From: a virus
Length of the DNA stretch: 64,000 nucleotides
Virus record (IMG/VR): IMGVR_UViG_3300045988_144476
Direction: 5' to 3' (one strand)
Shown in pieces: positions 18,401-60,824 of this stretch. The notes below the pieces were generated by a model. That model worked only from the letters and a program-made list of their open reading frames with translations, had not been told where the DNA came from and did not search any database. Both the position numbers and the translations under genes were made by a program. Numbering within the stretch: position 1 is the first letter of the stretch; each line of letters opens with the position of its first letter.

Positions 18401-20383
18401 TAAGAATTCAGATCCTTTTAAATTTGACCGAACTCGTTTGATTACATCATCCTGAACGTTGCTCATATCAAATCCCGCAGTATTAATACCATCCAAAATA
18501 CTTTGAACATATTTATCTGCAGCAGCTAATTCCTTCGGATCAGTCGTATCTTTTACAGCATCACGAATCTTTCCAATAGCAGTAGAAGCTTTATCGGTTG
18601 CAAGTTTCTGCAAGCCTGTCTGTAAATCATCTGTCTCAGTAGCAAGTTCTGGGAATTGCTGAATAAGATCTGTGATATCAGAACTCTTCATATCACCGGA
18701 TTTCAGGGAATCCATAGCAGTCTTGATATTAGACATACTTGACTGGAAATTATCTGTTACGGTATCAATGTCTGTTGCTGTGTCTTCAGCTGCATTCTTG
18801 AAGAGAGAAGAAAAAGTTTTGGATGTATCTTCGGAAGAAGCTTTAGATTCTTCCATTGCTTTATTCCAATTGGAAGTAAGTGTACCTATTCCCCAATCAT
18901 TCTCTTCAGGATCAAGACCATTATTCTGGAGATAATTCCAGAAAGTTTCTATATCTTTATCTGATTTATCCTTAAAAAATGCATCAGCGATTGAGCCGCC
19001 AGAAGTACTCGGAAGTTTTGACATAAATGCAAAAGTATCTTTAAGATTTTCTTTTACACCTTCAATATTTAATGCTTCCGGATCAGCTATAGCCATGATA
19101 TAAGATGCCAAATCATCTTGTGATACATTTTTATCTCCAAGTGCTGATTTGAGATCAGAATAATCTTTATTACTATTCAGAGCATCAAGAATTCCCTTGG
19201 AACCTTTAGACTTACCAATACTTTCAAGTTTTGTCTGTAAGTCTGCATAATCAGCGAGAGCAAAAAGATTGTTTAGTTTGTCCTCTGTGTCGGAAGATGA
19301 ACCTATGAGATTTGAGTAATTATCAATAAGAGAATTAACCTGGTCAATGGTACCCTGGTATTTCTTATCAAGAACTGTACCATCATCTTTAAGCATACTC
19401 TGTGACTGATCTGAGATATTAGAAATCATTTCAGAAAGTTCTGATTTTTGAGTATCAATACCTTCTTGCTGTCTCTCAAGAGTTTTATTTTCCTCTTCGG
19501 TAATTAGGTCCATATTATCGCTATGACCTTTTTTAATATTTTCATAGGCGGTATCATATCTATCCTGTAGATGTTGGATGTAATCCATTTTTGCCTGAGC
19601 TTCATCAAGATCATTAACATATACTTTGGCTTGTGGATTATAAATTCCACTACCGTCAGAGAAATAATCCTGCTGTAGAGATTTCTTCTTTAGATCTTTT
19701 TGTGCAGCATCTGCCTCAGCAGTTTTGGCACTGTCAGCTAATTTTTGTTTCAATGATACTTGGGCACCAAGAAGTTCATTCTGATCCTGAAGAGTATTTA
19801 ATTCTTGACTCTCTTCTAGTGATCTGTTTTCTTTTGCTCGAAGCTCTTGAATACGATCTTGATTAGTTGCGTATGCAGATTGTGCGGTTTCAAGATCAGA
19901 TTGAGCTGTTTCATTCTTCTCTTGAGCTTTTTGGTATTTCTTTGTGGTGGTTGCTTTTGTAAGATCAAATTGATTATCAAGACCTTTCCATGTAGCTGTA
20001 ACTGCTGCAATGCCTAATGAAAGAATTAATTCTGGAGCAATTGCTTTAAGCACAGATCCAATACCGGATAATACACCACTAGCTTTTCCAGTGACTCCTT
20101 TAGAACCAAATAAGAAACTTTTAATGTCTACAGTTTTGGTAGCATTGTCAAGAGCCTTTTCAACCTCTTCTTTGGTATGCTCTTCACCAAATTTATTCTT
20201 AACAGCTTCAAAAATCTGATCTGTTGATAGGAATTTTTGATTGCCTTTTCTATCGGTGTTTACACGATAAGCCCATTTCATTGCTGTCTCAAAATCTGAG
20301 AATCCACCAAATGCCGCATTTAAATCTTCTTTTGTACCTGTTTTAAATGCATTTTTTAGTTTTCCGATTTTACTTAATGACAT
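12407..20383 (-). CDS. tape measure protein, distal part (TMP-B, 2658 aa)
   Basis: Hydrophobic N-terminal segment (GVLSGIGSVLKAIAPELILSLGIAAVTATW) followed by about 2500 aa of Lys/Glu/Gln/Asn coiled coil. Two TMP-end-like motifs: GTESIVRDGVWSLLPGGPHFENLKKGDIIFNASQTKDLL (~15400-15540) and PGETILTQEFTKQL (C-terminus). Followed by Dit and Tal. ATG at 20383 has no Shine-Dalgarno. Confidence 0.75.
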   Translation of the reverse strand: MSLSKIGKLKNAFKTGTKEDLNAAFGGFSDFETAMKWAYRVNTDRKGNQKFLSTDQIFEAVKNKFGEEHTKEEVEKALDNATKTVDIKSFLFGSKGVTGKASGVLSGIGSVLKAIAPELILSLGIAAVTATWKGLDNQFDLTKATTTKKYQKAQEKNETAQSDLETAQSAYATNQDRIQELRAKENRSLEESQELNTLQDQNELLGAQVSLKQKLADSAKTAEADAAQKDLKKKSLQQDYFSDGSGIYNPQAKVYVNDLDEAQAKMDYIQHLQDRYDTAYENIKKGHSDNMDLITEEENKTLERQQEGIDTQKSELSEMISNISDQSQSMLKDDGTVLDKKYQGTIDQVNSLIDNYSNLIGSSSDTEDKLNNLFALADYADLQTKLESIGKSKGSKGILDALNSNKDYSDLKSALGDKNVSQDDLASYIMAIADPEALNIEGVKENLKDTFAFMSKLPSTSGGSIADAFFKDKSDKDIETFWNYLQNNGLDPEENDWGIGTLTSNWNKAMEESKASSEDTSKTFSSLFKNAAEDTATDIDTVTDNFQSSMSNIKTAMDSLKSGDMKSSDITDLIQQFPELATETDDLQTGLQKLATDKASTAIGKIRDAVKDTTDPKELAAADKYVQSILDGINTAGFDMSNVQDDVIKRVRSNLKGSEFLKDNAENTLTNLFDKYSGDKVAQQAIVKLSMDPSMATASLDEWIAKIDELRPQIHLDANDQDLENLSKDLTRLQTDASDMQTLMSNKSALNQKATAQDYNNLVENGNAQISNLNKQIKDYQDNIRTIRESKGISPLTDEDNEKIKGYQDQIQSAQMSIENMKASQAGWLEEIQNLPITDVTNLTSALSTAIGETNSETGLTSDSVKNLVTQFSDLTAQGTDISGLFTRSAKGLQLNTDRFQELSEAQNEMVSKDLASQIADQEKKIHDSNGNIIESEKQKLEELKNLQNEYMAQYKNMQEQTSQWQKGINAESTPNAGDHYKATKSKLESLKEMYDNGEIGTDDFKEKAAYFSPYGFTDADNFIENYNKWKPYYTDDKSGPLKFLDLLQSKGLATYKTLEDGSKQWQMTFADSDVAAKAVGMSEEQFKDYIGRYEDMGGVVTNISSIAEGEADVTKKTKDLISAQEKYSELVANGAPQYAIEQQAQVVDDLKNQVNDANTALDTYVNGATDREVQNLNTAKQTINDFAKEYQQVKDDPAQQEYAQGLYDRIQQLAKDNKIKLTPEFEVDEDAFNQMLHDKGIGTFDSPLTAEEMGISDPTAAKEYANSLEAVKQAHEANAEATEADFNALKQYTATDLEGIQLGDGAYNVEGMEQAEDALQDLANQAGLTKDQLVQALEGLGVLKPEVDSSEIEELKASADSALEDVKQLQSDGKINSKIDLDIDADSMSIDNLESKIQELSKEQTKFTIDGDVEDAEKVQALIDLLQQIHDKKVQVTAETQGAELVDQLQARISELQGKGVTIDAIVQDDKVSELVNEIAQLPPEVQISIGVEEGNVGNVDAIKSQIESNPASITVNYKKGDEPKVADDIKGQANYTMGDHPTTAPDISGTANYTLGSYPKTAPTIFGTAVYTKKVQATGTMTSIAHADGTAYNMLNLKPLSSAHAGGNVALNQNETALTNEVGTESIVRDGVWSLLPGGPHFENLKKGDIIFNASQTKDLLEHGRTNSNARAYAQGSLGSNAYALTGFNFKDTSTRKSTSSSSSNKKSSGSNSGSGSGSGKKNKSSSKSSSKKYLDDIVDWFERLVKKLENRIDLNAAKAENTYKLANKETYINKQLKDNQELQKDYAKGAKMYTKKSDKFAKDIGLSADLKNKVKNGKIDLAKLSDDNKKKVEAYQKWYDKINDCNKAIEELKQKEKELYQQKLNNITERYDALIGVYSSYNETLDSLNSAREEKGASQAPNSDYTNTIRNQISSNQTQADLIYQEIQKYQTAYNEFAKKYGPDDTATKEAKATLEGLNKSYYDIIQSTAEYENKLKEIQLTYDQWQVDKYQRASDKLSDSRDYKEKNNYKGSGNDLTENDYLNAIKTNDKTAIALNNRRNDIINQMSQYSENSTQYQDLAKDLADINSSIIDTANSTAELKKSIVDLRFKAFSDIQDDLNDYIDNLNDLQDMMDSDTFLNDDGSFTKQGLSNILLISKEMDAYKQQIVDYRQQLSEVQELYDNHMITLDEYEDATKDAVSNINKASKSLYSSQQNMLKAYEDQITKVNKSLQDNIDKRKDALSAKKDYYDYDKTLKDKNKDIDTLKAQIAALEGTTNASAKARLAQLKADLKDKEDDLADTKYEHQIDLESKGYDNLSEQANDALDKTLQAVKSNTELQKSVINNMLKEVQNSYSDAYSNIQKTIEDTGYKTSDMFDDLIKKAQLTNKTISEIPTNVPKTNTDEIDSQRPDKSGSDNAVNNALNSQDPSGSNLTVETIEQRQAREQAEAAAAAAQKAKAAVESAANTKSKLQEWYNSVPTGKVTSSKFKEKHHDFYYYFWKKNKKVGQKDFEQVAKILGHNYIASKPYKDWKKSWKDKILKELKGYGFSKGGVVRQLIPADANSFLGDAILKNGDTGFAPINPGETILTQEFTKQLKPATATMSQFNDMLSGKLPNIPASNQENTFNSNVTINVDSISSDVDVKKLAKEVSNTVMNDYSKYMRKDMMKLTGRNR

Positions 20384-46608: not shown

Positions 46609-46634
46609 AACAACTCCTCCTTGTGTTCGTTAAA

Positions 46635-46709
46635 TAGATGTAGTAGGACTCGAACCTACAAAACTCTGATCCTAAGTCAGATGCGTCTGCCAAATTGCGC
46701 CATACATCC
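46635..46709 (-). tRNA. tRNA-Leu(TAG)-like: tRNA with anticodon UAG (Leu CUA/CUG decoder by anticodon) but a class-I short variable loop
   Basis: Acceptor GGATGTA/TACATCT, A73, anticodon arm TCTGA-CTTAGGA-TCAGA, 5-nt variable loop, T arm GTAGG-TTCGAGT-CCTAC. No encoded CCA. Confidence 0.75.
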
Positions 46710-46715
46710 AAAGAA

Positions 46716-46733
46716 GGGCAGTAAAGACTGCCC
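46716..46733 (-). terminator. terminator-like hairpin between the phosphoesterase gene and the tRNA
   Basis: GGGCAG-TCTTTA-CTGCCC followed by TTCTTTGG on the minus strand. Confidence 0.55.
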
Positions 46734-46777
46734 TGTATAGAAGTGTATAATATAAGCAGCAACGCCACTCGTATTAT

Positions 46778-47959
46778 TTAATGTAATTTATATTTATGTT
46801 CATCTACAAGTCCATCTAACTGGTCAAACACAAACATAGAAGCACCTGCGTTTGCAGTTTTATTGATAGACATACTATATGGATTCACTCCAATAATTGA
46901 TCGAACACTAATTACTTCAGAATTTCGTGCAACTTCTTCAGAAAAAGAAGAATGCCAGTGTCCTGTAAATAAATAGTCGATAGGCACTTCATGGATCTTC
47001 ATAATATCTTTCATTGTCTTATTCAGATCTTTTGTTTCAAAATGTCCACCTAAACATGTATAAATAGTTAACTGTGAATATGCTAATCCAGTAGGATTTT
47101 CAACAATTTTTACATTTGGATTATCTTTTAATCTGGCTTTCATCAAAGCTAACATAGATTTACTCATATCTTCATTATCAAAAGCATTTTTAGGTTGTCC
47201 TAATAATCGCAATTGATTATGATTTGATTTTTTAACCATTTGAAAAGTAATAAAAACATGTTTACTTAATTCATTCAGCCATTCAGATAAAAAGTTTGCA
47301 TATAAAATAGAAGAATCAATAACTCCATATTTTAACTGCATAAGCTGAGAATTAGCTCTTAATAAACCATCAAGAGCATCTCCTAAATCCCAAATATGTA
47401 AATGTGTAATTCCGTCTTTATTGATCTGATCAACAACTTTATAATATAATTCCCACATTCTATGTTCAAAAATTTCAGGACTATATTCATTAATGGTATA
47501 TCCATGAAGATCTTTTATATTAAATTCAACTCCGTAATGAGCATCAGAAATAGTAAGAAGATAAGCTTTTGTAGTTGGTTTTAAAATGATCGGTTCAGGC
47601 TTCTCTAATGGTTCAAGACATTTTACAGCTTCGCCAATTTTTTCAGCAATTAATTCATCTCGTGAATACTCACGTAACCATTTATTAAACTCAAGTTTTT
47701 CAGTTTGAAGTTTAATTCGTTCTTTTTTAATTGCAAGTTCTTCCGGTATATTAGAAATAGAAGAGGATGGAGTAATATTCCATCCTGCATCTATATACTC
47801 TAATAATAATTTTGATCCTTTTCGAATTGTATCACGATGTTCAATTTCTCCTAAAGCATCAGATCTAAAATCTGTTACATCTTGCCATTCGATAGATGAA
47901 TCAGTTTGCTTTCGTTTAATCAGATCAAGCTGTTCTTTTAAAAATTGATCTTTATCCAT
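46778..47959 (-). CDS. calcineurin-like metallophosphoesterase (393 aa)
   Basis: Motifs ISDAHYG, DLGDALDG and GHWHS in the canonical order. Confidence 0.65.
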   Translation of the reverse strand: MDKDQFLKEQLDLIKRKQTDSSIEWQDVTDFRSDALGEIEHRDTIRKGSKLLLEYIDAGWNITPSSSISNIPEELAIKKERIKLQTEKLEFNKWLREYSRDELIAEKIGEAVKCLEPLEKPEPIILKPTTKAYLLTISDAHYGVEFNIKDLHGYTINEYSPEIFEHRMWELYYKVVDQINKDGITHLHIWDLGDALDGLLRANSQLMQLKYGVIDSSILYANFLSEWLNELSKHVFITFQMVKKSNHNQLRLLGQPKNAFDNEDMSKSMLALMKARLKDNPNVKIVENPTGLAYSQLTIYTCLGGHFETKDLNKTMKDIMKIHEVPIDYLFTGHWHSSFSEEVARNSEVISVRSIIGVNPYSMSINKTANAGASMFVFDQLDGLVDEHKYKLH

Positions 47960-47968
47960 AAATTTACC

Positions 47969-48184
47969 TTACATATTATCTGTTGCGGATCCAGAAATGT
48001 CATCAAGATCAATTTTCTCTTCAGTTTTAGTAGTAGTAGAAAGGTCAAAAGGAATATCTCCGTATGCCTTTTCAAAAACTTCAAGAATGTCAATAATTTC
48101 GCCATTCATATCAACAAGTCTTCCATCTACCATATGTAAACTTTTTATTTTTCCATCATATTTTACAGTCTTTTTTAATTCCAT
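47969..48184 (-). CDS. hypothetical protein (71 aa)
   Basis: ATG start with AAGGAGAAAA RBS. Confidence 0.6.
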   Translation of the reverse strand: MELKKTVKYDGKIKSLHMVDGRLVDMNGEIIDILEVFEKAYGDIPFDLSTTTKTEEKIDLDDISGSATDNM

Positions 48185-48205
48185 AATTTTTCTCCTTGTA
48201 TTCCA

Positions 48206-48234
48206 TTGACATATATCAATGTTTGATATATAAT
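48206..48234 (+). promoter_or_regulatory. perfect consensus sigma-70 promoter pointing antisense into clpP
   Basis: TTGACA-17 nt-TATAAT (12/12 consensus positions). The -35 sits in the palindrome CATTGA-N6-TCAATG. Confidence 0.45.
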
Positions 48235-48264
48235 GTTATTTGTGAAAGATTAAATAAAATTCAA

Positions 48265-48870
48265 TTATAATAAAGAATCTAATTCAATATCTTGTCCAAT
48301 AATACCGTCTACAATACCACGTTCTTTTGCCTCTTCAGCAAACATATAATATTCACGGTCTTTAATTTCTTCAAGAAATTCTGCAGACATATTACTATGT
48401 TCAATCATAAAATCAGTCATTCTTTTTTCAAGATTATCATAAAATTTCTGAATATCTTTTCCTTTATTTGACGAACTTACATATCCAGTCTGTCCATCAT
48501 GATACAATACAATAGTATTTGGGAAACAATATCTTTTATGTCCTGCGGCAAGAATATAGGATCCCATAGAAGCACATTTTGCAAATCCAATTGTAATTAC
48601 AGGAGTAGTAGATGTAGAAATTGAACTTAATACTTGTGATCCAGAAATAACATCTCCACCATCTGAATTAATATAAATATAAATTGGTTTTCTACAACCT
48701 TTTGGAAGACCCTTATCTTCTTTGTTCCACTGCATAATCATTAAACAAATATTTTCAATAATATTGTCATCGATATCTTCATTAAGAATAATTTTTCTTT
48801 GATTTAGATGTTCTTTTACAATTGTAGTATAAATTTCATCATCATCTTTTAATGTTAATAATTCCATCAT
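48265..48870 (-). CDS. clpP: ClpP-family serine protease
   Basis: INSDGGDV, catalytic-Ser context FAKCASMGS, and His context IVLYHDGQ. Confidence 0.8.
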   Translation of the reverse strand: MMELLTLKDDDEIYTTIVKEHLNQRKIILNEDIDDNIIENICLMIMQWNKEDKGLPKGCRKPIYIYINSDGGDVISGSQVLSSISTSTTPVITIGFAKCASMGSYILAAGHKRYCFPNTIVLYHDGQTGYVSSSNKGKDIQKFYDNLEKRMTDFMIEHSNMSAEFLEEIKDREYYMFAEEAKERGIVDGIIGQDIELDSLL

Positions 48871-48890
48871 ATATAATCCCTTTATTCCTT

Positions 48891-50336
48891 TTATAATGTA
48901 ATAACCATATCCTTTACAGAAGCAACAACTTTAAATGTTTTATCTTCATTAGATATAGCTGTTTTTAAATCTTGTTTTAAACTATTTTTAGCAACTTCTG
49001 AACCGTGAACTAAAACTAATTTTTCAGTATTTACTTTAGATCCATATGTGATAAGTTCATTTCTGTTAGCATGACTTGAAAATGTTCCAAGAGATATACA
49101 ATCCGCTTTATTTTCAACTCCATCACCACTAATTTTTATTATCTTATTTTCCTTATAGTTTTTAATTCTATATGAAAGATAGGAATTATCAGCTCCGGTA
49201 TATCCGCTAAAAATAACCATACTGTTTTCATCATTTAAGTATTCATGCAAATAAGATAAAATACGTCCATTTGTACAAAAACCTGAACTGCTTAAAACAA
49301 TTTTAGGTCTATGATCTTTAACAATAGCTAAAGAGTCTTCTTTTTCACGAATAAAATGAACTTTATCCCAACTAGATATTTTTCCCCATAACTCCAAATC
49401 ATTATCTGGTAGAAGAGTAGAATATAGATCACAAATATCACATGATAAGATAGAATCAACAATAATGTCATATTGAAAATTCTGATCATGATAAATACTA
49501 TATAGATTTGTCAATATTTCTTGCGTTCTACTAAAACTAAAGCATGGCATAATAACGGATCCACCACGTTCAGTTACTGTGTCAATAGCAGCTTTCAAAT
49601 GATCCAGGTCAAATTTACGTGTTTTCTTATTAATTCGTCCTGGTTCACCATAAGTAGACTCCATAATAGTAATTTTATTAAAATCTGTTGGAATTTCAGT
49701 ATTAGGAACATAATGATTCTTTGTATTCAAAGAACCAATATCAGAAGTGTATAAAATAGATTTTGGGATTCCGTTTTGATCCCGAAGTGTAAGTTGGAGC
49801 TGCCTAGCACCAACGCAATGACTATTTTCATACCATTTAAACGAAACGACATCATCCAAAACATATTGCGTATGAATTTCATCATATTCAACAATATATT
49901 TCAAGGTATCAGTAACATCTGTTTCATCATAGATAGGAGAATAGTTTCTTTTATATTTAAATGATAAAGCATTTGCTTCACTGAGTAAAATAAAAGCACA
50001 ATTATAAAGCAGCGGTTTCATAAGTTGTGCAGTAGCATGTGAAGCAATAATTTTTCCTGTAAATCCTTCTTTTACCAGTCTTGGAAGTAATCCAATATGA
50101 TCAACATGAGTATGTCCAATAAAAACATAATCAATTTCAGAAGGTTTAAATTGAAATTTTGCTGAATTTATATTATATGACTCAAGATAATTATTATTTT
50201 GATATAAACCGCATTCTAATAATATTTTTTTGCCGTTGTATTTAATATAAATACAGCTGCCGGTAACATCATTGGCATTTTGACCTATTAAATAAATGCC
50301 TTCATCTTTTTTCTTTTTAGCTATGTCAAACACCAA
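48891..50336 (-). CDS. metallo-beta-lactamase / beta-CASP family nuclease (RNase J / CPSF-like)
   Basis: HxHxDH motif (IGHTHVDHIG), ESTYG, and the C-terminal SSHAN motif. TTG/GTG start with a weak RBS. Confidence 0.8.
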   Translation of the reverse strand: MVFDIAKKKKDEGIYLIGQNANDVTGSCIYIKYNGKKILLECGLYQNNNYLESYNINSAKFQFKPSEIDYVFIGHTHVDHIGLLPRLVKEGFTGKIIASHATAQLMKPLLYNCAFILLSEANALSFKYKRNYSPIYDETDVTDTLKYIVEYDEIHTQYVLDDVVSFKWYENSHCVGARQLQLTLRDQNGIPKSILYTSDIGSLNTKNHYVPNTEIPTDFNKITIMESTYGEPGRINKKTRKFDLDHLKAAIDTVTERGGSVIMPCFSFSRTQEILTNLYSIYHDQNFQYDIIVDSILSCDICDLYSTLLPDNDLELWGKISSWDKVHFIREKEDSLAIVKDHRPKIVLSSSGFCTNGRILSYLHEYLNDENSMVIFSGYTGADNSYLSYRIKNYKENKIIKISGDGVENKADCISLGTFSSHANRNELITYGSKVNTEKLVLVHGSEVAKNSLKQDLKTAISNEDKTFKVVASVKDMVITL

Positions 50337-50355
50337 CTTTCAGTATATATTAGTA

Positions 50356-50568
50356 TTAGAAATTAAAATTTTTCTTATTTTTATCAATATATAAATCGGT
50401 CTGGTGAACTGATTTTCTATATTCATTCAAAATTTCAACAGTTTTATATCTGGTTGTCATATAATATCTTTTTGCACGACCTTTATGTGTCTTACTAATC
50501 GTATGAACATCAAAACCTCTTCCTTTTGAACGTAAGTATTCAGCTTCTTTTTGACTAATATTTATCAA
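50356..50568 (-). CDS. hypothetical basic protein (70 aa)
   Basis: TTG start 7 nt after GAGGAAA. Confidence 0.55.
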   Translation of the reverse strand: MINISQKEAEYLRSKGRGFDVHTISKTHKGRAKRYYMTTRYKTVEILNEYRKSVHQTDLYIDKNKKNFNF

Positions 50569-50748
50569 TTATTTTTCCTCGCTTAAAATAGATTTCTCCA
50601 ATAGGAGATTTTGTGTAGACTCAAAGGCTCATTATCTGTCATGATCAGAGACAAAACCTTTTGTAAACCCAATCTGACGCAAGCATCCTCATGGTAAAAC
50701 TATATCTACGATGTTTTATTGGAATTTTGATTTAATTTGTCAACCTCA

Positions 50749-50830
50749 TGGGAGAGGTAGGACTCGAACCTACGATGTTTCTTTGTGGCTGATTTACAGT
50801 CAGCTGCCTTCGCCGCTAGACTACTCTCCC
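50749..50830 (-). tRNA. tRNA-Tyr(GTA): tRNA-Tyr (GTA)
   Basis: Acceptor GGGAGAG/CTCTCCC, anticodon arm GCTGA-CTGTAAA-TCAGC, long variable arm, T arm GTAGG-TTCGAGT-CCTAC. Confidence 0.85.
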
Positions 50831-51147
50831 TTGTGTTAAGTGAACAGCTATTCTTATTAAATATATAACCATAAATGGAGGCCATATATTTTATTGGAAA
50901 CTTAACTTTCCCATATGATTTATGGTTAAATCACAAAAACTTGACTGCGTTTCGTCCTAAGTCAAACTCCCGCCAGATTTTCACGCTACTAGATATCTGG
51001 AACTTATCTTTTAATTCATCAAGAATACAGATTTGCGCCTGTCATTCTAAGATATAGTCTGTGTACTTTAGACTGCCATTTACTTCACTTCCTAAATGGT
51101 CAAAACGTAATCTGGGGCTAGAGGAGCTACCTCCGCATTTCAGATAA

Positions 51148-51219
51148 CACGCCCCCAAAGATTCGAACTCTGACTAATCGGGTTGGAGCCGATTGTACTG
51201 CCAATTATACGAAAGGCGT
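51148..51219 (-). tRNA. tRNA-Trp(CCA): tRNA-Trp (CCA)
   Basis: Acceptor ACGCCTT/GGGGCGT, D arm GTAT/GTAC, anticodon arm ATCGG-CTCCAAC-CCGAT, T arm CAGAG-TTCGAAT-CTTTG. Confidence 0.85.
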
Positions 51220-51227
51220 AAATAAAA

Positions 51228-51300
51228 GGTGACTAACGGGATTCGAACCCGTATAAGGTGGATCCACAATCCACTGCATTACCAAATCTGCCATAGTCAC
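51228..51300 (-). tRNA. tRNA-His(GTG): tRNA-His (GTG) without a genome-encoded G-1
   Basis: Acceptor GTGACTA/TAGTCAC, discriminator C73, anticodon arm GTGGA-TTGTGGA-TCCAC, T arm ACGGG-TTCGAAT-CCCGT. The base at -1 (51301) is U. Confidence 0.85.
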
Positions 51301-51302
51301 AA

Positions 51303-51384
51303 CGCTGCACACACGATTCGAACGTGCAAATCCTTTCGGACCAACAGTTTTCAAGACTGCTTCTTCACCACCCAGACATGCAGC
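51303..51384 (-). tRNA. tRNA-Ser(TGA): tRNA-Ser (TGA)
   Basis: Acceptor GCTGCAT/GTGCAGC, anticodon arm GCAGT-CTTGAAA-ACTGT, long variable arm TCC-GAAA-GGA, T arm GCACG-TTCGAAT-CGTGT. Only 2 nt separate it from tRNA-His. Confidence 0.8.
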
Positions 51385-51447
51385 ATAAAAAATATCCGTC
51401 TTTCCGGATTGTCAGACTACCCAGTAGTCATTTGCTAATTAATAATA

Positions 51448-51485
51448 GAAGCTGCGTCCTGCAGTTTCTTTTTTTTGTTTTTATT
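51448..51485 (+). terminator. plus-strand rho-independent terminator inside the minus-strand tRNA array
   Basis: GAAGCTGC-GTCCT-GCAGTTTC (8 bp including one G-U pair) followed by TTTTTTTTGTTTTT on the plus strand. Confidence 0.5.
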
Positions 51486-51506
51486 AATAATTCCTATATG
51501 GGATAA

Positions 51507-51591
51507 CGCAAAGCAGAATACTCGAAATTCAATCCAATAAAGGATCGCATGACTTAGCAGGTCAGCTCCGTGCCTCACGGATTTACTTTGC
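51507..51591 (-). tRNA. tRNA-Ser(GCT): candidate tRNA-Ser (GCT), non-canonical
   Basis: Acceptor GCAAAGT/GCTTTGC, 3-bp D stem, anticodon arm TGAC-CTGCTAA-GTCA, variable arm ATCC-TTTATT-GGAT, weak T arm GAAT-TTCGAGT-ATTC. A8 in place of U8. Confidence 0.5.
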
Positions 51592-51684
51592 AAGAGGAGA
51601 GTGGGAGACAGAAGTCTCCCTCAAAAAAAAATGAAAACAATAGTAACATAAACAACATCAAATTTGAGAGAAAAATTCTCTCAA

Positions 51685-51770
51685 TACTACCTGTGGGACT
51701 TGAACCCACACTTCGTATTTCAGAAACAGGATTTTAAGTCCTGTGCGCCTGCCAATTACGCCAAGGTAGC
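51685..51770 (-). tRNA. tRNA-Leu(TAA): tRNA-Leu (TAA)
   Basis: Acceptor GCTACCT/AGGTAGT, anticodon arm CAGGA-CTTAAAA-TCCTG, long variable arm, T arm GTGGG-TTCAAGT-CCCAC. Confidence 0.85.
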
Positions 51771-51782
51771 ATTTATGGGATA

Positions 51783-51854
51783 AGCACTATATGAGAATTG
51801 AACTCATATCATCTGATTGGAAGTCAGATATCATTGCCATTAGACCAATAGTGC
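51783..51854 (-). tRNA. tRNA-Gly(TCC): tRNA-Gly (TCC)
   Basis: Acceptor GCACTAT/ATAGTGC, anticodon arm TCTGA-CTTCCAA-TCAGA, T arm ATGAG-TTCAATT-CTCAT. Confidence 0.85.
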
Positions 51855-51858
51855 AAAA

Positions 51859-51932
51859 TGCCCGGTGCGAGACTCGAACTCGCATTATTGCCTTGAAAGG
51901 GCAATGTCACTAGCCTGTTAGACCAACCGGAC
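51859..51932 (-). tRNA. tRNA-Glu(TTC): tRNA-Glu (TTC)
   Basis: Acceptor GTCCGGT/ACCGGGC, anticodon arm TTGCC-CTTTCAA-GGCAA, T arm GCGAG-TTCGAGT-CTCGC. Confidence 0.85.
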
Positions 51933-52090
51933 TTATTTTATCTAGGAAGCGGGAAGCGGTCTTCTGCCGAACTGTTTATCTTATTACCTACTAAATTATA
52001 AAGAGCCATGGTTTTATAAAATTTTGGATCTCAGTTTAAAGAACTAAGATAATATTCTTTACGATTAAATCGTACTTAATACTTCCCAAA

Positions 52091-52161
52091 TAGCGGAGAT
52101 TAGATTCGAACTAATGTCTCTAGGGTATGAACCTAGCAAGGATCCACTCCTCTACTCCGCA
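52091..52161 (-). tRNA. tRNA-Met(CAT): tRNA-Met (CAT) with initiator-like features
   Basis: Anticodon arm CTAGG-TTCATAC-CCTAG, T arm ATTAG-TTCGAAT-CTAAT. Positions 1:72 are a U-U mismatch and 11:24 is A-U. Confidence 0.8.
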
Positions 52162-52345
52162 TTAATCGTTTATATGGTAGAACTATATCTGTATCGTCTT
52201 ACAATACATAGCATGTTCACTTATTGCCTACTAAGGATTCCATACTTTATCCCGATCAAAGTATAAAATGGACTCGGTTAATAATTCACATCTCATTTAA
52301 TATACTTTGTGTATGTTTATCCACACCAAACTTTCAGGCACCAAA

Positions 52346-52419
52346 CTGGAATGATGCGATTTGAACGCACAACATCTTGGTCCCAAACCAAGCGGACTGC
52401 CAAATTGTCCTACATTCCA
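52346..52419 (-). tRNA. tRNA-Pro(TGG): tRNA-Pro (TGG)
   Basis: Acceptor TGGAATG/CATTCCA, D arm GGAC/GTCC, anticodon arm CTTGG-TTTGGGA-CCAAG, T arm GTGCG-TTCAAAT-CGCAT. Confidence 0.85.
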
Positions 52420-53221
52420 TTAATAATAGGATGAGATTATTGACCTATTTAAATCAGCTTTGCTTACCGTTGGAAGTAAGTAATCACACGAACGATTAAT
52501 TCGTAGCTGATAGCGACACCAGTTTCAGTGGCTACTGGCAAACTCTTACTACATAGTATTATAAATTTCCTTTCAGCACATTCTTCCTTGCGAGATTCAG
52601 AGATTGCAGTCTCTTAGAGTTGCACCTAATTGTACTTTTTCATATTTCACCTTGCGAGTTTAATATGTGTCCATATTACAGAACAATAAGTCGCTTTTCT
52701 CTATGTAGTCGCATACACTTTTGCTTAATATAAGAATTTAACATTATTTTATGTTTTCTAACCAATTAAAAATATGTATGCTATTATTTATAGACTACGA
52801 GGTATACGTTTGAACATCTGTATCTTTTGAATACAGCCCATTCATCGCAGCCTTGCTTGTCTTGCTATCGACTCACTTTAGGCTATTCTAACTATCTTTC
52901 GATTTAAGTCAGAAATGTCCAATTAAATACAGCACTTGCTCTTGCGGAACTTGCACCATAAAACAACCTTACTGTCCACCCATTTCTGAGTTTATTTATA
53001 GCACCTTTCCCATGATGCCCGACCAACCATTGTCCTCAGCGGATGCCCCAAGACTTTAGGTTGGAACGTTAGTAAGTATTGGCTTTCTATCACCCCTCTT
53101 TAGAAGGAGGCACTTTCGTGCTTTATACGTGTCACCACGCTTATTTAACGACTTGAAGCCAGCCGATCTAATATTTATATATTTTATAAAAAAAACATAA
53201 AGCTTATTAGATAAAGCTAAG
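52420..53221 (-). ncRNA. candidate large structured non-coding RNA (GOLLD/ROOL-like context)
   Basis: 800-nt spacer between tRNA-Pro and tRNA-Asn with no ORF and less AT bias than its flanks. Minus-strand GNRA-capped hairpins: GCAC-GAAA-GTGC (53110-53121) and CGTG-GTGA-CACG (53128-53139). Three-way junction CAGCT[ACGAA..TTCGT][CTTAC..GTAAG]AGCTG (52455-52509). CCAACC/GGTTGG stem. Internal repeat CTCGCAAGG at 52586 and 52650. Confidence 0.5.
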
Positions 53222-53294
53222 CTGACCCAGTAGGAATTGAACCTACGACACGCTGGTTAACAGCCAGCTGCTCTACCTATTGAGCTATGGGCCA
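53222..53294 (-). tRNA. tRNA-Asn(GTT): tRNA-Asn (GTT)
   Basis: Acceptor TGGCCCA/TGGGTCA, D arm GCTC/GAGC, anticodon arm GCTGG-CTGTTAA-CCAGC, T arm GTAGG-TTCAATT-CCTAC. Confidence 0.85.
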
Positions 53295-54309: not shown

Positions 54310-57174
54310 TTAAACCAACTTTTTTTTTGAATTCGTGTAATTTTTGCGGAAATTTTGAAGGAATGCATCTTTATCCATATTGTAAAGAAGATTAAGCAAG
54401 TTACGTGTATACCGAATGTATTCTTTAGCTTTACCTCGATTACTGGTATTTAAAGCAATTTCAATAAGTCTGCTCATTGTTTTTGGATTTTTTATTTTCA
54501 TTTTACGTAAATCTTTAAGAATTTCATCAAATCTTTGAGTATATGCTATAATATCGTCATCTGACATATTATCTTTACTCAATAACTCTAATTCTTTAGC
54601 ATATCCTATAATTTTATCCATTTGTCTTCGATTAGCATCGCCAGAAACTTTTATAATAAAATCTTTCGTAGGAGTAGAATTTTTAGAAGAGATAGGTTTA
54701 ATCTCATTTATTACAATCTGCAGAGCATTCATAGGACATATATAATAGGAAGAAATTCTGTTATTGAGCTTGTCAACCTGTTGCATAACTTCTTCTTTTT
54801 CAAGTTCTTTACCGTTCTTTGTATATGAAATTTTCCTTGTATATCTCATAAACTCTGGAAAATCAATTTTCTGTTTCTTGGTATTGCCATCTTCATCAAC
54901 ATATTCCCTATACCGATTCATGCATTCCATTCTTTTGATTCTCTTTATTTCATCAAGAGCGTCAACTTCATATTCTCTTTTGCAACCATCAATTATAACT
55001 TGGGCAAGAACAGAAAGAATAACGAAGTTATCGTATAATTCCCTTGTAGGTTCAGTCCAATAATATGTCATAGCAAGCTGTGCTAAATTACTAGATTCAC
55101 CAATACCAATTCTAGATTTTGCAAATTTATTATCCATACGAGCGTACTCTTTGAGTGTATTCTTATATGTAAGGCCGCTTTCTTTAAGCTTATTTACAAT
55201 AGTAGGATATTTTTGATATGCAATTTTTGCACTTTGTACCATTACATCATTATTAGTAACAAAAAAGAAATCTGAATCAAAATCACATCCATTAGCACGA
55301 TCCTGGATATCAGTATGGATACAATTTACAAACATGATATTGTTACTAATATTAAAATATCGCTTAAATCTATCATCATAGTGATTATGTAAGTAGCAAA
55401 TATTATTAGGACTATTATGAGGGTTTCTGATACCACACAAATATTCACCATCATCAAATCTTTTGGTATATACCTGAATTACGCCATCTTCATGTTTAAA
55501 AGTTGGATCGTCATCCGGATTTTCTCCTACAGCTTTCATTAAAAGAGCATAAGGATTTCCAAAAATAGTTAAGTTATCTCCATTTATAGTAATTTTACCG
55601 GTACGAAGTTTATTTACATATTGATTTATAATTTTTCTTTTTTCAAATCTAAACCATGTACTTTCTGCAAATTCATTGTTCCAATTATACAAATCTGCCA
55701 GCATTTCATAGTGATTCACTACATTTGCATTTTTTCTCAGATAATCAACATAAATACCATTGTCAACTTTCATAGATTCAACATAATCAACACTTTTTTT
55801 AGCTAATTTACGAATTTCATTTACATAGCAGCATGGAAGAATATCATCTTTATAAGAAGGAAGAGTATTAACCATTTGATAGCTCATCTGTTGCACATTA
55901 CCTAATTTACTTGGATGATCGGTTTTAACTATCCCCCAGTAGGATCCATCAGCATTAACTCTATCACACCAATATTTATAGGCATCTGCAGGTGTTTTAC
56001 CCATCAAATTCATGAATTTCTTCCATTTAATAGCATTATCTGTTGTAATCATCTTAATATCTTTCAATTTATGTAAAATACCAAACATATCCTTTACTTC
56101 ATATGTTTCGTAATCATACCCATGTTCAGCACACCAATCTTTTAAAAATAACTGTATTTCACATCGAATAGCACATGCTTTAAAGAAATGTTCTCTCAAA
56201 AGTGCCATTCCATTCACCCATGATGGAAGAATAGAAGACTCTGCAAGCATCTCACCATCAAATAAAGTATTTTTTACCTCAGTTTCCTCATCATGAACGA
56301 CACATTTTTTCTTAATTACCGGAATTGTTTTATATCTTCTGGTATATTTCGGAGTAACGCCATCTTTAAGAAATTTCTTTTCCTTAATAGCCTTTTGTCT
56401 AGCAGCTTCAGTAGCTTCTTCATCAAGAACACGTTCATAATCTGTATATTCTTCAGCTGAAACAATCTTAGCCATCGTTTTAAAAAAACTGTCATGATCC
56501 TTAAGAATTAAAATATCTTCAACAGGACAATGAAATTTCCCTACAATAGTAGAAGTAGTAAGCGGAGCATAAGCTGACATTTCAACAATTTTCGCATCGT
56601 CAATAGGCATTTTGTCTCCAAGTCCCATAGTGAGCCAATCATATGCCTTTTTGTATAATTTACTATTAATAAACATTACCTGGCCAATTTTAGCCTTTGA
56701 AGAATTTCGGTAAAGCATTTTATAATTAATTTTCTGTACCTTTTCTTCATTTTTCTTAGAGTATTTGGTCCGGTATGTAACATCTATACCATTTTCATAG
56801 AATAATTCTCTAATTTCATCTTTGGACATTTTTAGATAATTATCCTTATTAGCCTGTACATTTTCAAATATTTGTTTAATTCTTTCTTTTGATTCCTTTG
56901 TAAGAGAAGCATCTTCCTCATATCCTTTAAATTGTTTCCTTAAATGAGTAATTTCTTCTTCATAGCTGCGACTACCAAAATTAAAATCAAGACAGATAAT
57001 ATCTCTTGTACTTGTATCATTCCATATATTTAAACCATGTTCTTTTATCCAGTCTGAGAATAAACTGTTACTGAACATAGCATCAGTAAAATCAAATCTT
57101 TCACGAACACCCTGATTATTTCCAAAGAGAGTGCCGGCTTTTATATTTTTTATTTTTAATCCAAATTCTGACAA
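54310..57174 (-). CDS. YonO-like / RdRP-fold single-subunit two-barrel RNA polymerase (954 aa)
   Basis: Ordered motifs SAYAPLTTSTIVG, ILILKDHDSFF, LFDGEMLAESS, GIRNPHNSPNNI and the metal-binding-like NGCDFDSDFFFV (DxDxD). This is the pattern of eukaryotic-type RdRP and SPbeta YonO. TTG start 5 nt after GGAGGTG. Confidence 0.65.
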   Translation of the reverse strand: MSEFGLKIKNIKAGTLFGNNQGVRERFDFTDAMFSNSLFSDWIKEHGLNIWNDTSTRDIICLDFNFGSRSYEEEITHLRKQFKGYEEDASLTKESKERIKQIFENVQANKDNYLKMSKDEIRELFYENGIDVTYRTKYSKKNEEKVQKINYKMLYRNSSKAKIGQVMFINSKLYKKAYDWLTMGLGDKMPIDDAKIVEMSAYAPLTTSTIVGKFHCPVEDILILKDHDSFFKTMAKIVSAEEYTDYERVLDEEATEAARQKAIKEKKFLKDGVTPKYTRRYKTIPVIKKKCVVHDEETEVKNTLFDGEMLAESSILPSWVNGMALLREHFFKACAIRCEIQLFLKDWCAEHGYDYETYEVKDMFGILHKLKDIKMITTDNAIKWKKFMNLMGKTPADAYKYWCDRVNADGSYWGIVKTDHPSKLGNVQQMSYQMVNTLPSYKDDILPCCYVNEIRKLAKKSVDYVESMKVDNGIYVDYLRKNANVVNHYEMLADLYNWNNEFAESTWFRFEKRKIINQYVNKLRTGKITINGDNLTIFGNPYALLMKAVGENPDDDPTFKHEDGVIQVYTKRFDDGEYLCGIRNPHNSPNNICYLHNHYDDRFKRYFNISNNIMFVNCIHTDIQDRANGCDFDSDFFFVTNNDVMVQSAKIAYQKYPTIVNKLKESGLTYKNTLKEYARMDNKFAKSRIGIGESSNLAQLAMTYYWTEPTRELYDNFVILSVLAQVIIDGCKREYEVDALDEIKRIKRMECMNRYREYVDEDGNTKKQKIDFPEFMRYTRKISYTKNGKELEKEEVMQQVDKLNNRISSYYICPMNALQIVINEIKPISSKNSTPTKDFIIKVSGDANRRQMDKIIGYAKELELLSKDNMSDDDIIAYTQRFDEILKDLRKMKIKNPKTMSRLIEIALNTSNRGKAKEYIRYTRNLLNLLYNMDKDAFLQNFRKNYTNSKKKLV

Positions 57175-57186
57175 ACAAACACCTCC

Positions 57187-58920
57187 TTAAAATGGAATTA
57201 GCGTATTATTATATTCTCGTGTAGACATAACTATATTATTGTCAGAATTAGTTGATGAAATGCTTCTATTAATTGATGAAACACTGTGATGGAAACGTGA
57301 ACGTGTATATCTGCCATAATCTTCCATAAATTGTTTTAAAACCTTTTTATCTTTATTTTTAATTTTATCAGATTCGCATTTCTTTAACTGTTTCTGCAAA
57401 TTACTTAATTGTCTATTACTACTAAGTGTACCTAATGGTCCACCAATTTTCATTTTTATATCTTTCTTTTTACGTTCAATCTCTTTTTTAAGAAATTCAA
57501 TTTTCTTATCCAAATCTTCATTTATCATTTTTTCAAAAGCTTTATTATATCTATCGATGTAATATTGCTGAAGATCTTTGGAGAATGTCTTCATCAGATC
57601 ATTCCATGTCATTTTCTCAATTTCTTCTATATTAATAGATTTAGCAAAATCAATAATATCTTTCACGAACTCAAGAGTAAGTAAAAATGTCTCATATTTT
57701 AAAGTACTTTTGAACATTCTAAATTCAATGGTGTCTTTGTGCTGTAAGTTTAACGCAGCTTTTTTACCGGTATTATCATACTTTGCAAGCAGATTAAGAA
57801 CCGTATCTTCTTTACAACGATCACCCACAAATTGACTATAATCCGTATTTCTTCTTCCAATAACACAAATATTGTCGTTAAATTTCTCAATAATATACAA
57901 TATTTTAGAAATTACCAGATCCTGCTGCATTTTGGTTTTACCTAAATAATCTCTATTTGCATGAATATGTAAGCCTGCAGTATTACAATCATGTCCTTTA
58001 TAACCCATTTCATCAAGATATTTAAACATTTCTTTGTAGTTCATCTTGTTTTTATGATATTCTAAGCTACAAGGCATAGTATCAAGTTCAATTTGAACCG
58101 TACCATCATGAGTACTATATATAAGATCTTCTTTATCAGACTCAGATCCATTCATTATTTGAATACATCTCTTTACAACTGATTGTTTATTATTAGAATC
58201 TACTTCTGGTTTATTTCCACCAACTTCTATTTCTGCTCCAAGTAGAAGAGTAGTACGTTTATTTTCGTGGTCCATAAAATGTTTAATATATTCTGGCGTA
58301 TAATTATATTCATGAATATAGTATTTTTTATTACAATTATTTATCATAGCAGTTCGTAACATTGATGCACTGTAATCTATAAAAAAATCATTAGCATAAG
58401 AAGATGAAGCACTAACTGATTCTATTAGACGATCTAAGCCCCTATCATTTACAACATTCCCATTAGTATCTACTTTTCTATATCCGATTAATTCACATCT
58501 ATTACATTCTGCATTAAAATATACATTATCATTAGATAGACTATTTAATCTGTGTTGTGATACAAGTTTTCTAGATACTTCATACGTATCGGTATTTAGT
58601 CTGCTACAGAACCAATTATAAAATAAATTAAAATTATAAATAATTCGACAATCAAATCTATGCCAGCCAGAATCATCGCAATATGAAACAGTTGCGGTAT
58701 CTATATCTGTATAATTCGATAGTGCTATTCTTACTTTTTCAGCTAATTCACGCATATTAAATTCAATTGCATAATCATTACATTCAAAAATAATACAATC
58801 TCCAAAACTATTATTTGTATAAATACATCTTATATTTGTAACAAAATAATTATCTACAACAAATGGATCCTGAAGACTAATAGTATGTCCGTCAATCTCT
58901 ATATCAGGTAATAATTTCAT
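57187..58920 (-). CDS. amidoligase-like enzyme (glutamine-synthetase-like COOH-NH2 ligase, Amidoligase_2-like) with a basic coiled-coil C-terminus
   Basis: GAEIEVGG, HDGTVQIELDTMP, TAGLHIHAN and DTIEFRMFKSTL in the family order. Confidence 0.55.
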   Translation of the reverse strand: MKLLPDIEIDGHTISLQDPFVVDNYFVTNIRCIYTNNSFGDCIIFECNDYAIEFNMRELAEKVRIALSNYTDIDTATVSYCDDSGWHRFDCRIIYNFNLFYNWFCSRLNTDTYEVSRKLVSQHRLNSLSNDNVYFNAECNRCELIGYRKVDTNGNVVNDRGLDRLIESVSASSSYANDFFIDYSASMLRTAMINNCNKKYYIHEYNYTPEYIKHFMDHENKRTTLLLGAEIEVGGNKPEVDSNNKQSVVKRCIQIMNGSESDKEDLIYSTHDGTVQIELDTMPCSLEYHKNKMNYKEMFKYLDEMGYKGHDCNTAGLHIHANRDYLGKTKMQQDLVISKILYIIEKFNDNICVIGRRNTDYSQFVGDRCKEDTVLNLLAKYDNTGKKAALNLQHKDTIEFRMFKSTLKYETFLLTLEFVKDIIDFAKSINIEEIEKMTWNDLMKTFSKDLQQYYIDRYNKAFEKMINEDLDKKIEFLKKEIERKKKDIKMKIGGPLGTLSSNRQLSNLQKQLKKCESDKIKNKDKKVLKQFMEDYGRYTRSRFHHSVSSINRSISSTNSDNNIVMSTREYNNTLIPF

Positions 58921-59255: not shown

Positions 59256-59674
59256 TCCATTTCCTCCTTAATCGGTGTTCTTTTTTCGCTTACAGTTATA
59301 AATGTGCCTTTATTTAAATCAACTAAATATTCATATGAATAAATAACGCCTACTTCTTTATATTCATCAAATATTGTAAGTAAATTTACATTATCTTCAT
59401 GCTCCTGGAACACAGGATTATGTAATCTTAAATTATAAAATTTATAACACTTAAGATTAATAAAAATTGAAGTATAAGAGACATAAGAGTTGCATATATC
59501 TTCTACACCCGATTCATAAGTGATTCTTTTATTAAAATCGTAATTTTTCATTATATTAACAATTTTTAAAATACTATCCTGTGTATTCTTTAATTCTTTT
59601 TGTAATTTGTCTATTTTGTCATATAATTCTTCATATTCACTTTTCTTATTCCAAAACATATTATTCCCCCACAT
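59252..59674 (-). CDS. hypothetical protein (140 aa)
   Basis: Overlaps its neighbours within the operon. Confidence 0.65.
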   Translation of the reverse strand: MWGNNMFWNKKSEYEELYDKIDKLQKELKNTQDSILKIVNIMKNYDFNKRITYESGVEDICNSYVSYTSIFINLKCYKFYNLRLHNPVFQEHEDNVNLLTIFDEYKEVGVIYSYEYLVDLNKGTFITVSEKRTPIKEEME

Positions 59675-60494
59675 ATACTAATTTATTTATATATTCTCTA
59701 CCTTCATTCCGAAATACAGGAATTTGAACATCTATACGCCAATAATCACCACTATAATTCTTAACGCAACAAATTCCACGTTGTTTATGTGTTTCAAAAT
59801 CATTATCAAAATCAATATTTTTCTGCTTATGTAACATTTCTTTAATATCAGCAGTATTTTTATTCTGCAGTTCTTTCTGAGAAAAATTAGCCTGACCAAC
59901 CATCTGAATTGAATTACGAATACAATCCTGCTGTCTCCAGAAAAAATAATTAGTGACTTCATCTTTAGAGAGATTAAAACATCTGGAGTCAAAACCTTTA
60001 TACTTAACTTCAATTGCATTACTTAAATAATTAATATAAGTGAGATCTTCCTGATGCTGATTAATAAGCCATTGATTGGTACATCCCATATCCCAATTAG
60101 GAATATTTTTATAACCAAATTTCTCAATATTGTTCTCAAATACTTCTTTGAACCTAATAGTAGCTAGAGCAGCAGAGGTACTAACTATTTTCTGAATACG
60201 ATTATCAAACCAAGGTTGAGTATCAAAATCTTTATAATCAATAAGAAGTAATGAGATTTCATCAGACTGAGTATATGCAATAACACAATTCTGTACATTC
60301 TTACATAAATACAAAGCAGTCTGTTGCATAGAATTAATCAAAATATCATCAAATGGCCTCTTGAATCCTCTTGTAAAACTATGAAATCTGCGGCCATCAA
60401 GTCTAATGATTACCGGCATTCTCCGGATCAACTTCTGGTCCGTGACTTTTTCGTAGCTTTTCATTCTGATATCTAAATCTGTGTATACTGGCAT
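59661..60494 (-). CDS. Thg1-like protein (tRNA-His guanylyltransferase family, 3'-5' nucleotidyltransferase)
   Basis: IIRLDGRRFHSFTRGFKRPFDD...IAYTQSDEISLLL matches the Thg1 N-terminal catalytic motifs. RBS AAGGAGAG. Confidence 0.8.
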   Translation of the reverse strand: MPVYTDLDIRMKSYEKVTDQKLIRRMPVIIRLDGRRFHSFTRGFKRPFDDILINSMQQTALYLCKNVQNCVIAYTQSDEISLLLIDYKDFDTQPWFDNRIQKIVSTSAALATIRFKEVFENNIEKFGYKNIPNWDMGCTNQWLINQHQEDLTYINYLSNAIEVKYKGFDSRCFNLSKDEVTNYFFWRQQDCIRNSIQMVGQANFSQKELQNKNTADIKEMLHKQKNIDFDNDFETHKQRGICCVKNYSGDYWRIDVQIPVFRNEGREYINKLVYVGE

Positions 60495-60497
60495 TGT

Positions 60498-60824
60498 TTA
60501 ACTCTCCTTATCTGATTTTCCTAAAATTTTTTCAACAGAATGTGTACATTGATGAGTAACTTCAATAAAATCATTATTGTCTAATTCATTCTGACAATTC
60601 CTAAAGAATTTATTATAAATTTCATTTACACATTCTTTACTACAGCAATCAAGAGGTCTATCTTGATTCCAATTGTCATTTTTATCTACTTTTGTTATGG
60701 ATATCATCCAATAATGCTGCGGAATCTTCATTTTACGTCCACATACATCACAAACATAAGTATGATCAACAAGCACACGCTGTATCACTTGGCGTTCTTC
60801 AAATTTGTTTTCAATCATATGCAA
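60498..60824 (-). CDS. hypothetical Cys-containing protein (108 aa)
   Basis: CDVCG...CCSKEC. Tightly packed with neighbours. Confidence 0.6.
   Translation of the reverse strand: MHMIENKFEERQVIQRVLVDHTYVCDVCGRKMKIPQHYWMISITKVDKNDNWNQDRPLDCCSKECVNEIYNKFFRNCQNELDNNDFIEVTHQCTHSVEKILGKSDKES

Follow-up and report, generated by a model that had tools for sequence, protein, structure and literature searches.

The stretch of phage DNA analysed here (64,000 nucleotides, hereafter the window) carries a tRNA-His gene without an encoded G at position -1 together with an intact gene for a Thg1-like protein (TLP), and this arrangement is conserved across the phage family to which the window belongs, where the TLP is core, the tRNA-His is accessory and G-1 is never encoded. 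Drawing on sequences, catalytic residues, covariation and co-occurrence, we favour a reading, to which we would give about an even chance, in which the TLP would be a core, general enzyme of tRNA 5'-end repair and maturation and tRNA-His would be one of its clients, with the encoded G-1 dispensable.

The tRNA-His(GUG) gene lies at 51228–51300 on the minus strand, and the boundaries drawn by ARAGORN agree with those of the Rfam tRNA model (63.3 bits, gathering score 29). Read from the sequence, its acceptor stem has 7 bp (GUGACUA/UAGUCAC), with G1-C72 as the first pair and U8 following, the discriminator is C73 (51228), and the base at -1 (51301) is U (T in the DNA), as is the base at -2 (51302), so that G is not encoded at -1. 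As TTTT comes right after C73, there is no encoded CCA, and the order of elements is ...GCAGCG-UU-GUGACUA-UG...UAGUCAC-C-UUUU. An earlier note, made from the letters alone, had described the same GTG anticodon, G1-C72 pair, C73 and U at -1, and ARAGORN, Rfam and the sequence itself all bear this out. The gene has the GUG anticodon, the C73 and the covarying cloverleaf of a canonical bacterial-type tRNA-His, and it lacks the encoded G-1:C73 pair that makes the acceptor 8 bp long. Taking the first G as G-1 by shifting the register was rejected, since this would lose U8 and leave only a 6-bp stem.

The spacer to the preceding gene is formed by UU at 51301–51302 (minus strand), of which 51301 is the -1 position, with a U unable to pair with C73. 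In its canonical reading the upstream tRNA-Ser(UGA), a type II tRNA with G73 that scores below the Rfam gathering threshold, occupies 51303–51384 on the minus strand; since this reading ends at G73 (51303), the 2-nt UU spacer that the earlier note had given between the two tRNAs holds. ARAGORN draws the tRNA-Ser as 51302–51385, with an 8-bp stem obtained through an extra U-1:G73 pair. The 3' end of tRNA-Ser is defined by processing at the 5' end of tRNA-His.

To assess the tRNA-His as a gene, nine distinct variants were aligned, seven from the window's phage family and two (L096 and L019) that share only the tRNA. Pairing holds in all cloverleaf cells (100%), and in 11 of the 20 pairs both partners have changed in compensation, values reached by none of 500 shuffles, while sliding the 3' partners by one to three columns drops the structure to 30–50% paired. 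None of the nine variants departs from the others at G1-A4:U69-C72, at C73, in the loop with the GUG anticodon or in the T-loop. Perfect pairing, covariation and invariant positions together argue that the tRNA-His is under cloverleaf selection, and we regard it, judged by these patterns, as a selected, folding tRNA and no relic. The traits of the alphaproteobacterial type that is independent of G-1 (A73 with U72) were not found, C73 and C72 being invariant in the alignment, and the window ORFs that were inspected include no HisRS gene.

ARAGORN finds 11 tRNA genes in the window, all on the minus strand (46634–53294), ten of which form an array at 50749–53294 (Asn, Pro, Met, Glu, Gly, Leu, Ser, His, Trp, Tyr). 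None of the 11 encodes CCA, and seven have U at -1; as U-1 is the norm in the array, the tRNA-His gene is constructed as an ordinary tRNA gene, unlike bacterial tRNA-His. In Leu-UAG, Trp, Ser and Leu-UAA the U-1 can pair with the discriminator, and ARAGORN draws 8-bp acceptor stems for these. The acceptor stem of the tRNA-Met(CAT) gene (52091–52161, minus strand) is topped by a U1·U72 mismatch; with A11:U24 and an anticodon stem whose base consists of two G:C pairs, the gene looks like a phage-encoded initiator-type tRNA. Editing of the 5' ends of other array tRNAs by the TLP was considered and rejected, as the sole mismatch at 1:72 is that of tRNA-Met, which is explained by its initiator look. 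Directly downstream of the array, with synteny kept in three relatives (L001, L005 and L006), lies a gene for a beta-CASP/MBL/RMMBL ribonuclease (48891–50336, minus strand; Pfam Beta-Casp 2.9e-18, Lactamase_B and RMMBL). Its best NCBIfam matches, type VII CRISPR Cas14 MBL-CASP (225 bits, cutoff 800) and also aCPSF1, are both below cutoff, and it may be a candidate phage enzyme for tRNA 3' processing or tRNA precursors.

The TLP gene (59661–60494, minus strand) encodes 277 amino acids, and its stop lies 8361 nt (about 8.4 kb) from the start of tRNA-His, which is on the same strand. Pfam PF04446, PHROG 4717 and the structure 4KGK all point to a Thg1-like protein of the bacterial TLP type. The Thg1 catalytic motifs that the earlier note had seen in this protein were confirmed: the N-terminal catalytic (palm) domain matches PF04446 over residues 10–135 (105.6 bits against a cutoff of 29.2, E = 2.3e-30), and in a phmmer alignment with 3OTB its D33, D78 and E79 correspond to residues D29, D76 and E77 of the human enzyme, all three being unchanged across 13 relatives. 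The match to PHROG 4717 ("tRNA-His guanylyltransferase") has E = 4e-78. The best relative with a solved structure is the TLP of B. thuringiensis (BtTLP, 4KGK; E = 1e-54, both domains aligned), which is far closer than human Thg1 (4.2e-12) or that of Candida (1.2e-8). In the C-terminal part, the Thg1C model PF14413 scores 19.3 bits, below its cutoff of 26.3, and residues 167–275 match the C-terminal half of BtTLP (i-Evalue 6.8e-22). At the position of the eukaryotic HINNLYN motif of human Thg1 the window protein has IRNSIQM. We assign it to the TLP clade and not to bona fide eukaryotic Thg1.

Identity of the TLP to its relatives in cultured phages and in the PDB is below 50%, and its relatives in bacterial genomes come mostly from gut Clostridia MAGs (43–50% identity), some of these contigs probably being phage. 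Two conserved proteins are encoded in the interval that separates the TLP from the tRNA array (54310–58920, minus strand), one of 954 aa (54310–57174) and one of 577 aa that is Amidoligase_2-like; the pair served as the synteny anchor of the family survey, and the 954-aa protein was the retrieval anchor. Identity between clades of the family is 45–54% for the TLP vs 72–79% for the neighbouring 954-aa protein, which suggests that the TLP evolves rapidly, or is replaced or exchanged at a fixed position. An ORF of 108 aa lies near the TLP in the window (60498–60824). In the close relatives L001–L004, an 80-aa product of the Lar restriction-alleviation type (PF14354; e.g., L001 9759–10001) abuts the TLP upstream and Bro-N/anti-repressor genes lie near it, neighbours that place the TLP among genes of early or anti-defence type.

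Close homologues of the TLP (78–86% identity) were found on metagenome contigs with conserved gene order. Two of these (L005 and L006) have a tRNA-His identical to that of the window and share the Ser-UU-His junction, and in a third (L001) the body of the tRNA-His is clearly diverged, with the slot kept and UU still preceding G1; the junction gcgtt/G is common to these three and to about 25 IMG/VR relatives. A fourth contig (L007) has no tRNA-His, and an ORF similar to HNH homing endonucleases (215 aa, 19165–19812) fills its interval between Ser and Trp; L007 and L006 encode identical TLP proteins, though only L006 has the tRNA-His.

In the wider family, 59 IMG/VR loci, anchored on the 954-aa protein and taken with 10-kb flanks, were scored for TLP and tRNA-His. 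All loci that cover both positions and bear a tRNA-His also have the TLP (34 loci), five have the TLP and no tRNA-His (L243, L244, L248, L264 and L246), and among the informative loci none has tRNA-His without TLP. The five do not include L216, in which the TLP is intact and the tRNA-His is absent, since a larger deletion (Ala to His) takes out the slot there. At least five sublineages lack tRNA-His but keep the TLP ORF intact (L243; L244/L248/L264; L246; L007; and L216). The stop sign in the tblastn alignment of L243 had raised the possibility of a pseudogene, which was rejected, as the ORF is intact (298 aa) and the sign marks its natural stop. T stands at -1 in 41 of 41 IMG/VR tRNA-His genes of the family and in 3 of 3 metagenome relatives (L001, L005 and L006), in three sequence contexts; in the 41 IMG/VR copies there are two junction contexts, one after tRNA-Ser and the other after an odd tRNA whose anticodon loop counts 8 nt. 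In L213 this odd tRNA (16834–16907; GC 25.7%; ARAGORN "ttat", Stop or Ile) lies 1 nt upstream of the tRNA-His, and it is present also in 13 other loci (L211, L221, L222, L229, L234, L237, L251, L253, L255, L257, L259, L260 and L267); possibly it is a tRNA of the suppressor or frameshift kind.

The dependence inside the family is one-way only, as in the informative loci tRNA-His is never found without the TLP, and the TLP is found without tRNA-His in five. The co-occurrence of Thg1 and G-1-less tRNA-His in related phages, for which the earlier note had proposed a survey, holds within the family (34 loci against none with tRNA-His and no TLP) and, as set out below, fails in both directions outside it. 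Every member has the TLP, so that phylogenetic inertia accounts for most of the co-occurrence seen inside the family.

G-1 is the main identity element for HisRS, and bacterial RNase P, as reportedly found by Burkard, Willis and Söll in 1988, retains it only through pairing with C73. In the mechanism that we propose under the favoured reading, the tRNA array would be transcribed as a polycistron, and RNase P would cut the tRNA-His precursor at +1 and leave a 5'-monophosphate on G+1, because U-1 cannot pair with C73 into the 8-bp stem that shifts the cleavage of bacterial pre-tRNA-His to -1. The TLP would then activate the G+1 end using ATP or GTP and add one G opposite C73 to give G-1:C73, a CCA-adding enzyme of the host or the phage would finish the 3' end post-transcriptionally, and host HisRS would be able to charge the G-1-bearing tRNA-His. 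Of these steps, we infer the RNase P site, the activity of the TLP on tRNA-His and the need of HisRS for G-1. It is a speculative addition that, with CCA unencoded, addition of G before CCA synthesis would hold the TLP to a single G. The enzyme would not be dedicated to tRNA-His and would be kept, for example, to mend tRNAs of host or phage in the course of infection, and the encoded G-1 would be dispensable because the TLP is always present. A role beyond tRNA-His is supported by the intact TLP of lineages without tRNA-His and of Staphylococcus phage PMBT8, 87 of whose 88 kb gave no detectable tRNA gene. General 5'-end repair had been the secondary idea of the earlier note, and it seems to account for the comparisons no less well than the idea of a module of tRNA-His and enzyme.

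Encoded G-1 is reported to be retained by RNase P (PMC6471195). The bacterial and archaeal TLPs tested are described as adding nucleotides in a strictly Watson-Crick-templated manner, and in vitro both BtTLP and the TLPs of archaea can place G-1 opposite C73 and mend 5'-truncated tRNAs, the kcat/KM for the repair of truncated tRNA being reported as 5- to 160-fold higher (PMC3061083, PMC6471195). For BtTLP in vitro, truncated tRNAs are said to be favoured over addition at -1, and several Gs can be added on a C73-CCA end; the tRNA-His role of bacterial TLPs is deemed redundant in reviews, since G-1 is encoded (PMC6471195).

TLPs were found in 159 of 50,697 phage records, which cover diverse phages. 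Of the 159 records, 21 are of phages that infect Caulobacter, Brevundimonas or Sinorhizobium, which counts for the favoured reading, as tRNA-His identity in Caulobacter is reported to do without G-1 (PMC3064791). The proteins annotated as phage tRNA-His guanylyltransferases (Bc431v3 gp143, CBB_152, GAP32_147 and XacN1 ORF126/585) are of the same family as the window TLP (PHROG 4717). The tRNA-His genes of the TLP-encoding phages that were checked differ from the U-1/C73 form of the window's family: Fusobacterium phage Fnu1, with the closest cultured TLP (48% identity), has G at -1 and A73 (L269 3064–3137), Bacillus phage Bc431v3 has C at -1, A73 and C1-G72 (L275 902–975), an IMG/VR locus has U-1 and A73 (L136 2908–2981), Stenotrophomonas phage CM1 has an ordinary G-1:C73 tRNA-His, and so does the megaphage LR745206, with two tRNA-His genes and G-1 in both. 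Opposite A73, strict templating would have the TLP add U and not G, which would make the A73 forms of Bc431v3, Fnu1 and L136 unservable. G-1-less tRNA-His occurs in 3 of 6 independent TLP-encoding lineages with tRNA-His data against a baseline of about 25% without G-1, a weak enrichment, and the sample of seven TLP-encoding lineages has no strong excess of U-1/C73. The servable form, C73 without G-1, occurs among these lineages in the window's family only, so among the cases found it is there alone that templated addition opposite C73 would fit cleanly.

In 80 TLP-centred IMG/VR loci with 10-kb flanks, tRNAs are almost never present, and proximity is therefore no test of the link outside the window's family. 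Likewise, no annotated tRNA lies in the 41 kb around the TLP of GAP32 or in the corresponding region of Lak-A1, which says nothing on the link. In Fnu1 (L269 4045–6261), GAP32 (L328 34677–35942) and Arthrobacter phage Mimi (L272 1–85), the TLP or the tRNA-His has an RNA ligase or metallophosphoesterase gene in its neighbourhood, which hints that TLPs travel with RNA-repair genes.

The other side of the comparison is the tRNA-His of viruses at large. A pattern scan of IMG/VR gave 117 tRNA-His genes with a GTG anticodon, which fall into 69 clusters at 90% identity: about 47 have G-1 and C73, about 11 have a non-G base at -1 and C73 (T in every one), about six have a non-G base at -1 and A73, and four have G-1 and A73. 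C73 without an encoded G-1 is a minority design among phages, far from unique, and unusual but not rare. In one viral tRNA-His gene of the G-1:C73 form (L013 2749–2825) the first acceptor pair is a U1·C72 mismatch. The U-1/C73 form is present, well formed in both cases, in Mycobacterium phage Myrna (NC_011273 93083–93155, in the order Glu-U-His) and in Synechococcus phage S-PM2 (LN828717 109844–109917). No TLP was found in Myrna, and all 11 TLP-encoding Mycobacterium records are Omegavirus phages; S-PM2 gave no TLP either when its complete genome, with the segment that the deletion mutant lacks, was scanned with a profile HMM derived from a diverse set of TLPs (best E 2.7, against 1e-56 to 1e-107 for the positive controls). 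A tblastn search of 120 tRNA-His-centred IMG/VR loci, which are short fragments, likewise gave no TLP. A phage TLP is consequently no general prerequisite for a U-1/C73 tRNA-His, and the tRNA-His of the window may also manage without one. With the varied tRNA-His status of the TLP-encoding phages on one side and these TLP-less phages on the other, the link between TLP and G-1-less, C73-bearing tRNA-His is not general in either direction.

These phages are also what gives weight to the most serious competitor of the favoured reading, namely that the link is incidental, with the TLP acting purely in 5'-end repair or counter-defence on damaged tRNAs and the tRNA-His functioning without G-1 or receiving it otherwise, as must be so in the TLP-less phages. 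We consider this a real possibility, though clearly the less probable of the two. It fits the U-1/C73 tRNA-His of Myrna and S-PM2 and the roughly 11 of 69 viral types of this form, the retention of the TLP without tRNA-His in five sublineages and in PMBT8, the much faster divergence of the TLP relative to its neighbour, as is often seen in conflict genes, the RNA ligase genes near the TLP in Fnu1 and GAP32, and the kinetic preference of TLPs for repair (PMC3061083). However, such TLPs are reported to add G opposite C73 on G+1 tRNA-His in vitro, and it would be surprising if the enzyme ignored this substrate in vivo (PMC3061083, PMC6471195). Moreover, that G-1 is encoded in no member of the family suggests relaxed or opposite selection under a constant TLP. 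To our knowledge, no tRNA nuclease defence directed at the 5' strand has been described. The tRNA-cleaving retron Eco2 nicks the 3' strand (PMC12916289).

It is considerably more doubtful that the two genes form a dedicated two-part module, in which the phage TLP would exist specifically to mature the phage's own G-1-less tRNA-His, as the earlier note had proposed when it called the pair self-contained. The anatomy of the tRNA-His, C73 as an available template, the intact TLP 8.4 kb away on the same strand with synteny conserved family-wide, and the co-occurrence within the family all stand in favour, and the genome paper of phage CBB applied the same logic to its Thg1 and tRNA (PMC5259590). 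Against the self-contained form stand the TLPs that are intact where tRNA-His is absent (L243, L244, L248, L264, L246, L007 and L216), above all that of L007, where an HNH gene sits in the tRNA-His slot and the TLP is still identical to that of L006. Most IMG/VR TLP loci have no tRNA within 10 kb, other TLP-encoding phages have a normal G-1 tRNA-His, an A73 form or no detectable tRNA, and U-1/C73 tRNA-His occurs without TLP; the idea is already strained by the TLP-encoding lineages without tRNA-His. Finally, we find it very improbable that the tRNA-His does not serve translation and is a decaying gene, a decoy for host nucleases or a processing spacer in which the missing G-1 is inconsequential, since, although the Ser–Trp slot varies from one family member to another and has an HNH gene in L007, its perfect cloverleaf pairing, 11 compensatory pairs, invariant key positions and Rfam score of 63 bits speak for the contrary.

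Returning to the TLP as a general enzyme with tRNA-His as a client, maturation of tRNA-His by such an enzyme is familiar from archaea and eukaryotes, and what would be new is the phage setting. The closest solved relative, BtTLP (4KGK/4KGM), shares the catalytic Asp/Asp/Glu with the window TLP and both adds G-1 and repairs tRNA in vitro (PMC3061083); however, it is a cellular protein of a bacterium whose tRNA-His genes encode G-1, so that its tRNA-His role is redundant, whereas the window TLP is encoded by a phage beside a truly G-1-less tRNA-His. In the archaeal TLP pathway (e.g., Methanosarcina) the chemistry described is the one proposed here, a templated G opposite C73 after RNase P (PMC3245924, PMC6471195), but that pathway runs in archaeal cells, while here enzyme and tRNA are found on a bacterial virus and the duties of the enzyme are seemingly broader. 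The eukaryotic Thg1/tRNA-His pair is alike in that no gene-encoded G-1 is retained and the enzyme adds G post-transcriptionally for recognition by HisRS; unlike the window protein, which has IRNSIQM and is nearer to TLPs, eukaryotic Thg1 has HINNLYN and adds an untemplated G opposite A73. The alphaproteobacterial G-1-less tRNA-His has A73, whereas that of the window keeps C73. In Caulobacter the tRNA-His gene is G-1-less like that of the window, and its tRNA-His identity is reported to be independent of G-1, HisRS there no longer needing it (PMC3064791).

Thg1-like genes of phages have been annotated and discussed since 2010–2013 (PMC2904730, PMC3601020, PMC7824862, PMC5852040), and the genome paper of CBB states that Thg1 assists the phage's own tRNA (PMC5259590). 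A full-text search found no literature noting the absence of G-1 in phage tRNA-His, and the papers found on the annotated phage enzymes do not say whether G-1 is encoded there. The phage enzymes are known from annotation (PHROG 4717); a phage tRNA-His lacking G-1 seems not to have been described before.

The finding bears mainly on the physiological substrates of bacterial-type TLPs, which is its principal point of interest. The gut-phage family of the window, in which every tRNA-His is G-1-less, C73 is kept and the TLP is always along, offers a simple, naturally occurring system in which to test G-1 addition in vivo, and its TLP-encoding lineages without tRNA-His are a matched control for a role in repair. 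That G-1-less phage tRNA-His is fairly common, also without TLP, raises a question of tRNA identity in infected bacteria. Here we would venture, as an unlikely yet attractive idea that rests on about one sixth of the distinct types showing the design in phages with and without TLP, that loss of G-1 with C73 kept and U always at -1 is a recurrent, selected design of phage tRNA-His, with identity secured by an unrecognised route. If this were true, the routes could be 3'-5' addition by a phage or host enzyme, relaxed recognition by HisRS, or avoidance of the 8-bp acceptor end with G-1:C73, which would escape a host nuclease or tie charging to an enzyme timed by the phage. The TLP of the family would then be one such solution, and its tRNA-His would be the first physiological tRNA-His substrate for a bacterial-type TLP.
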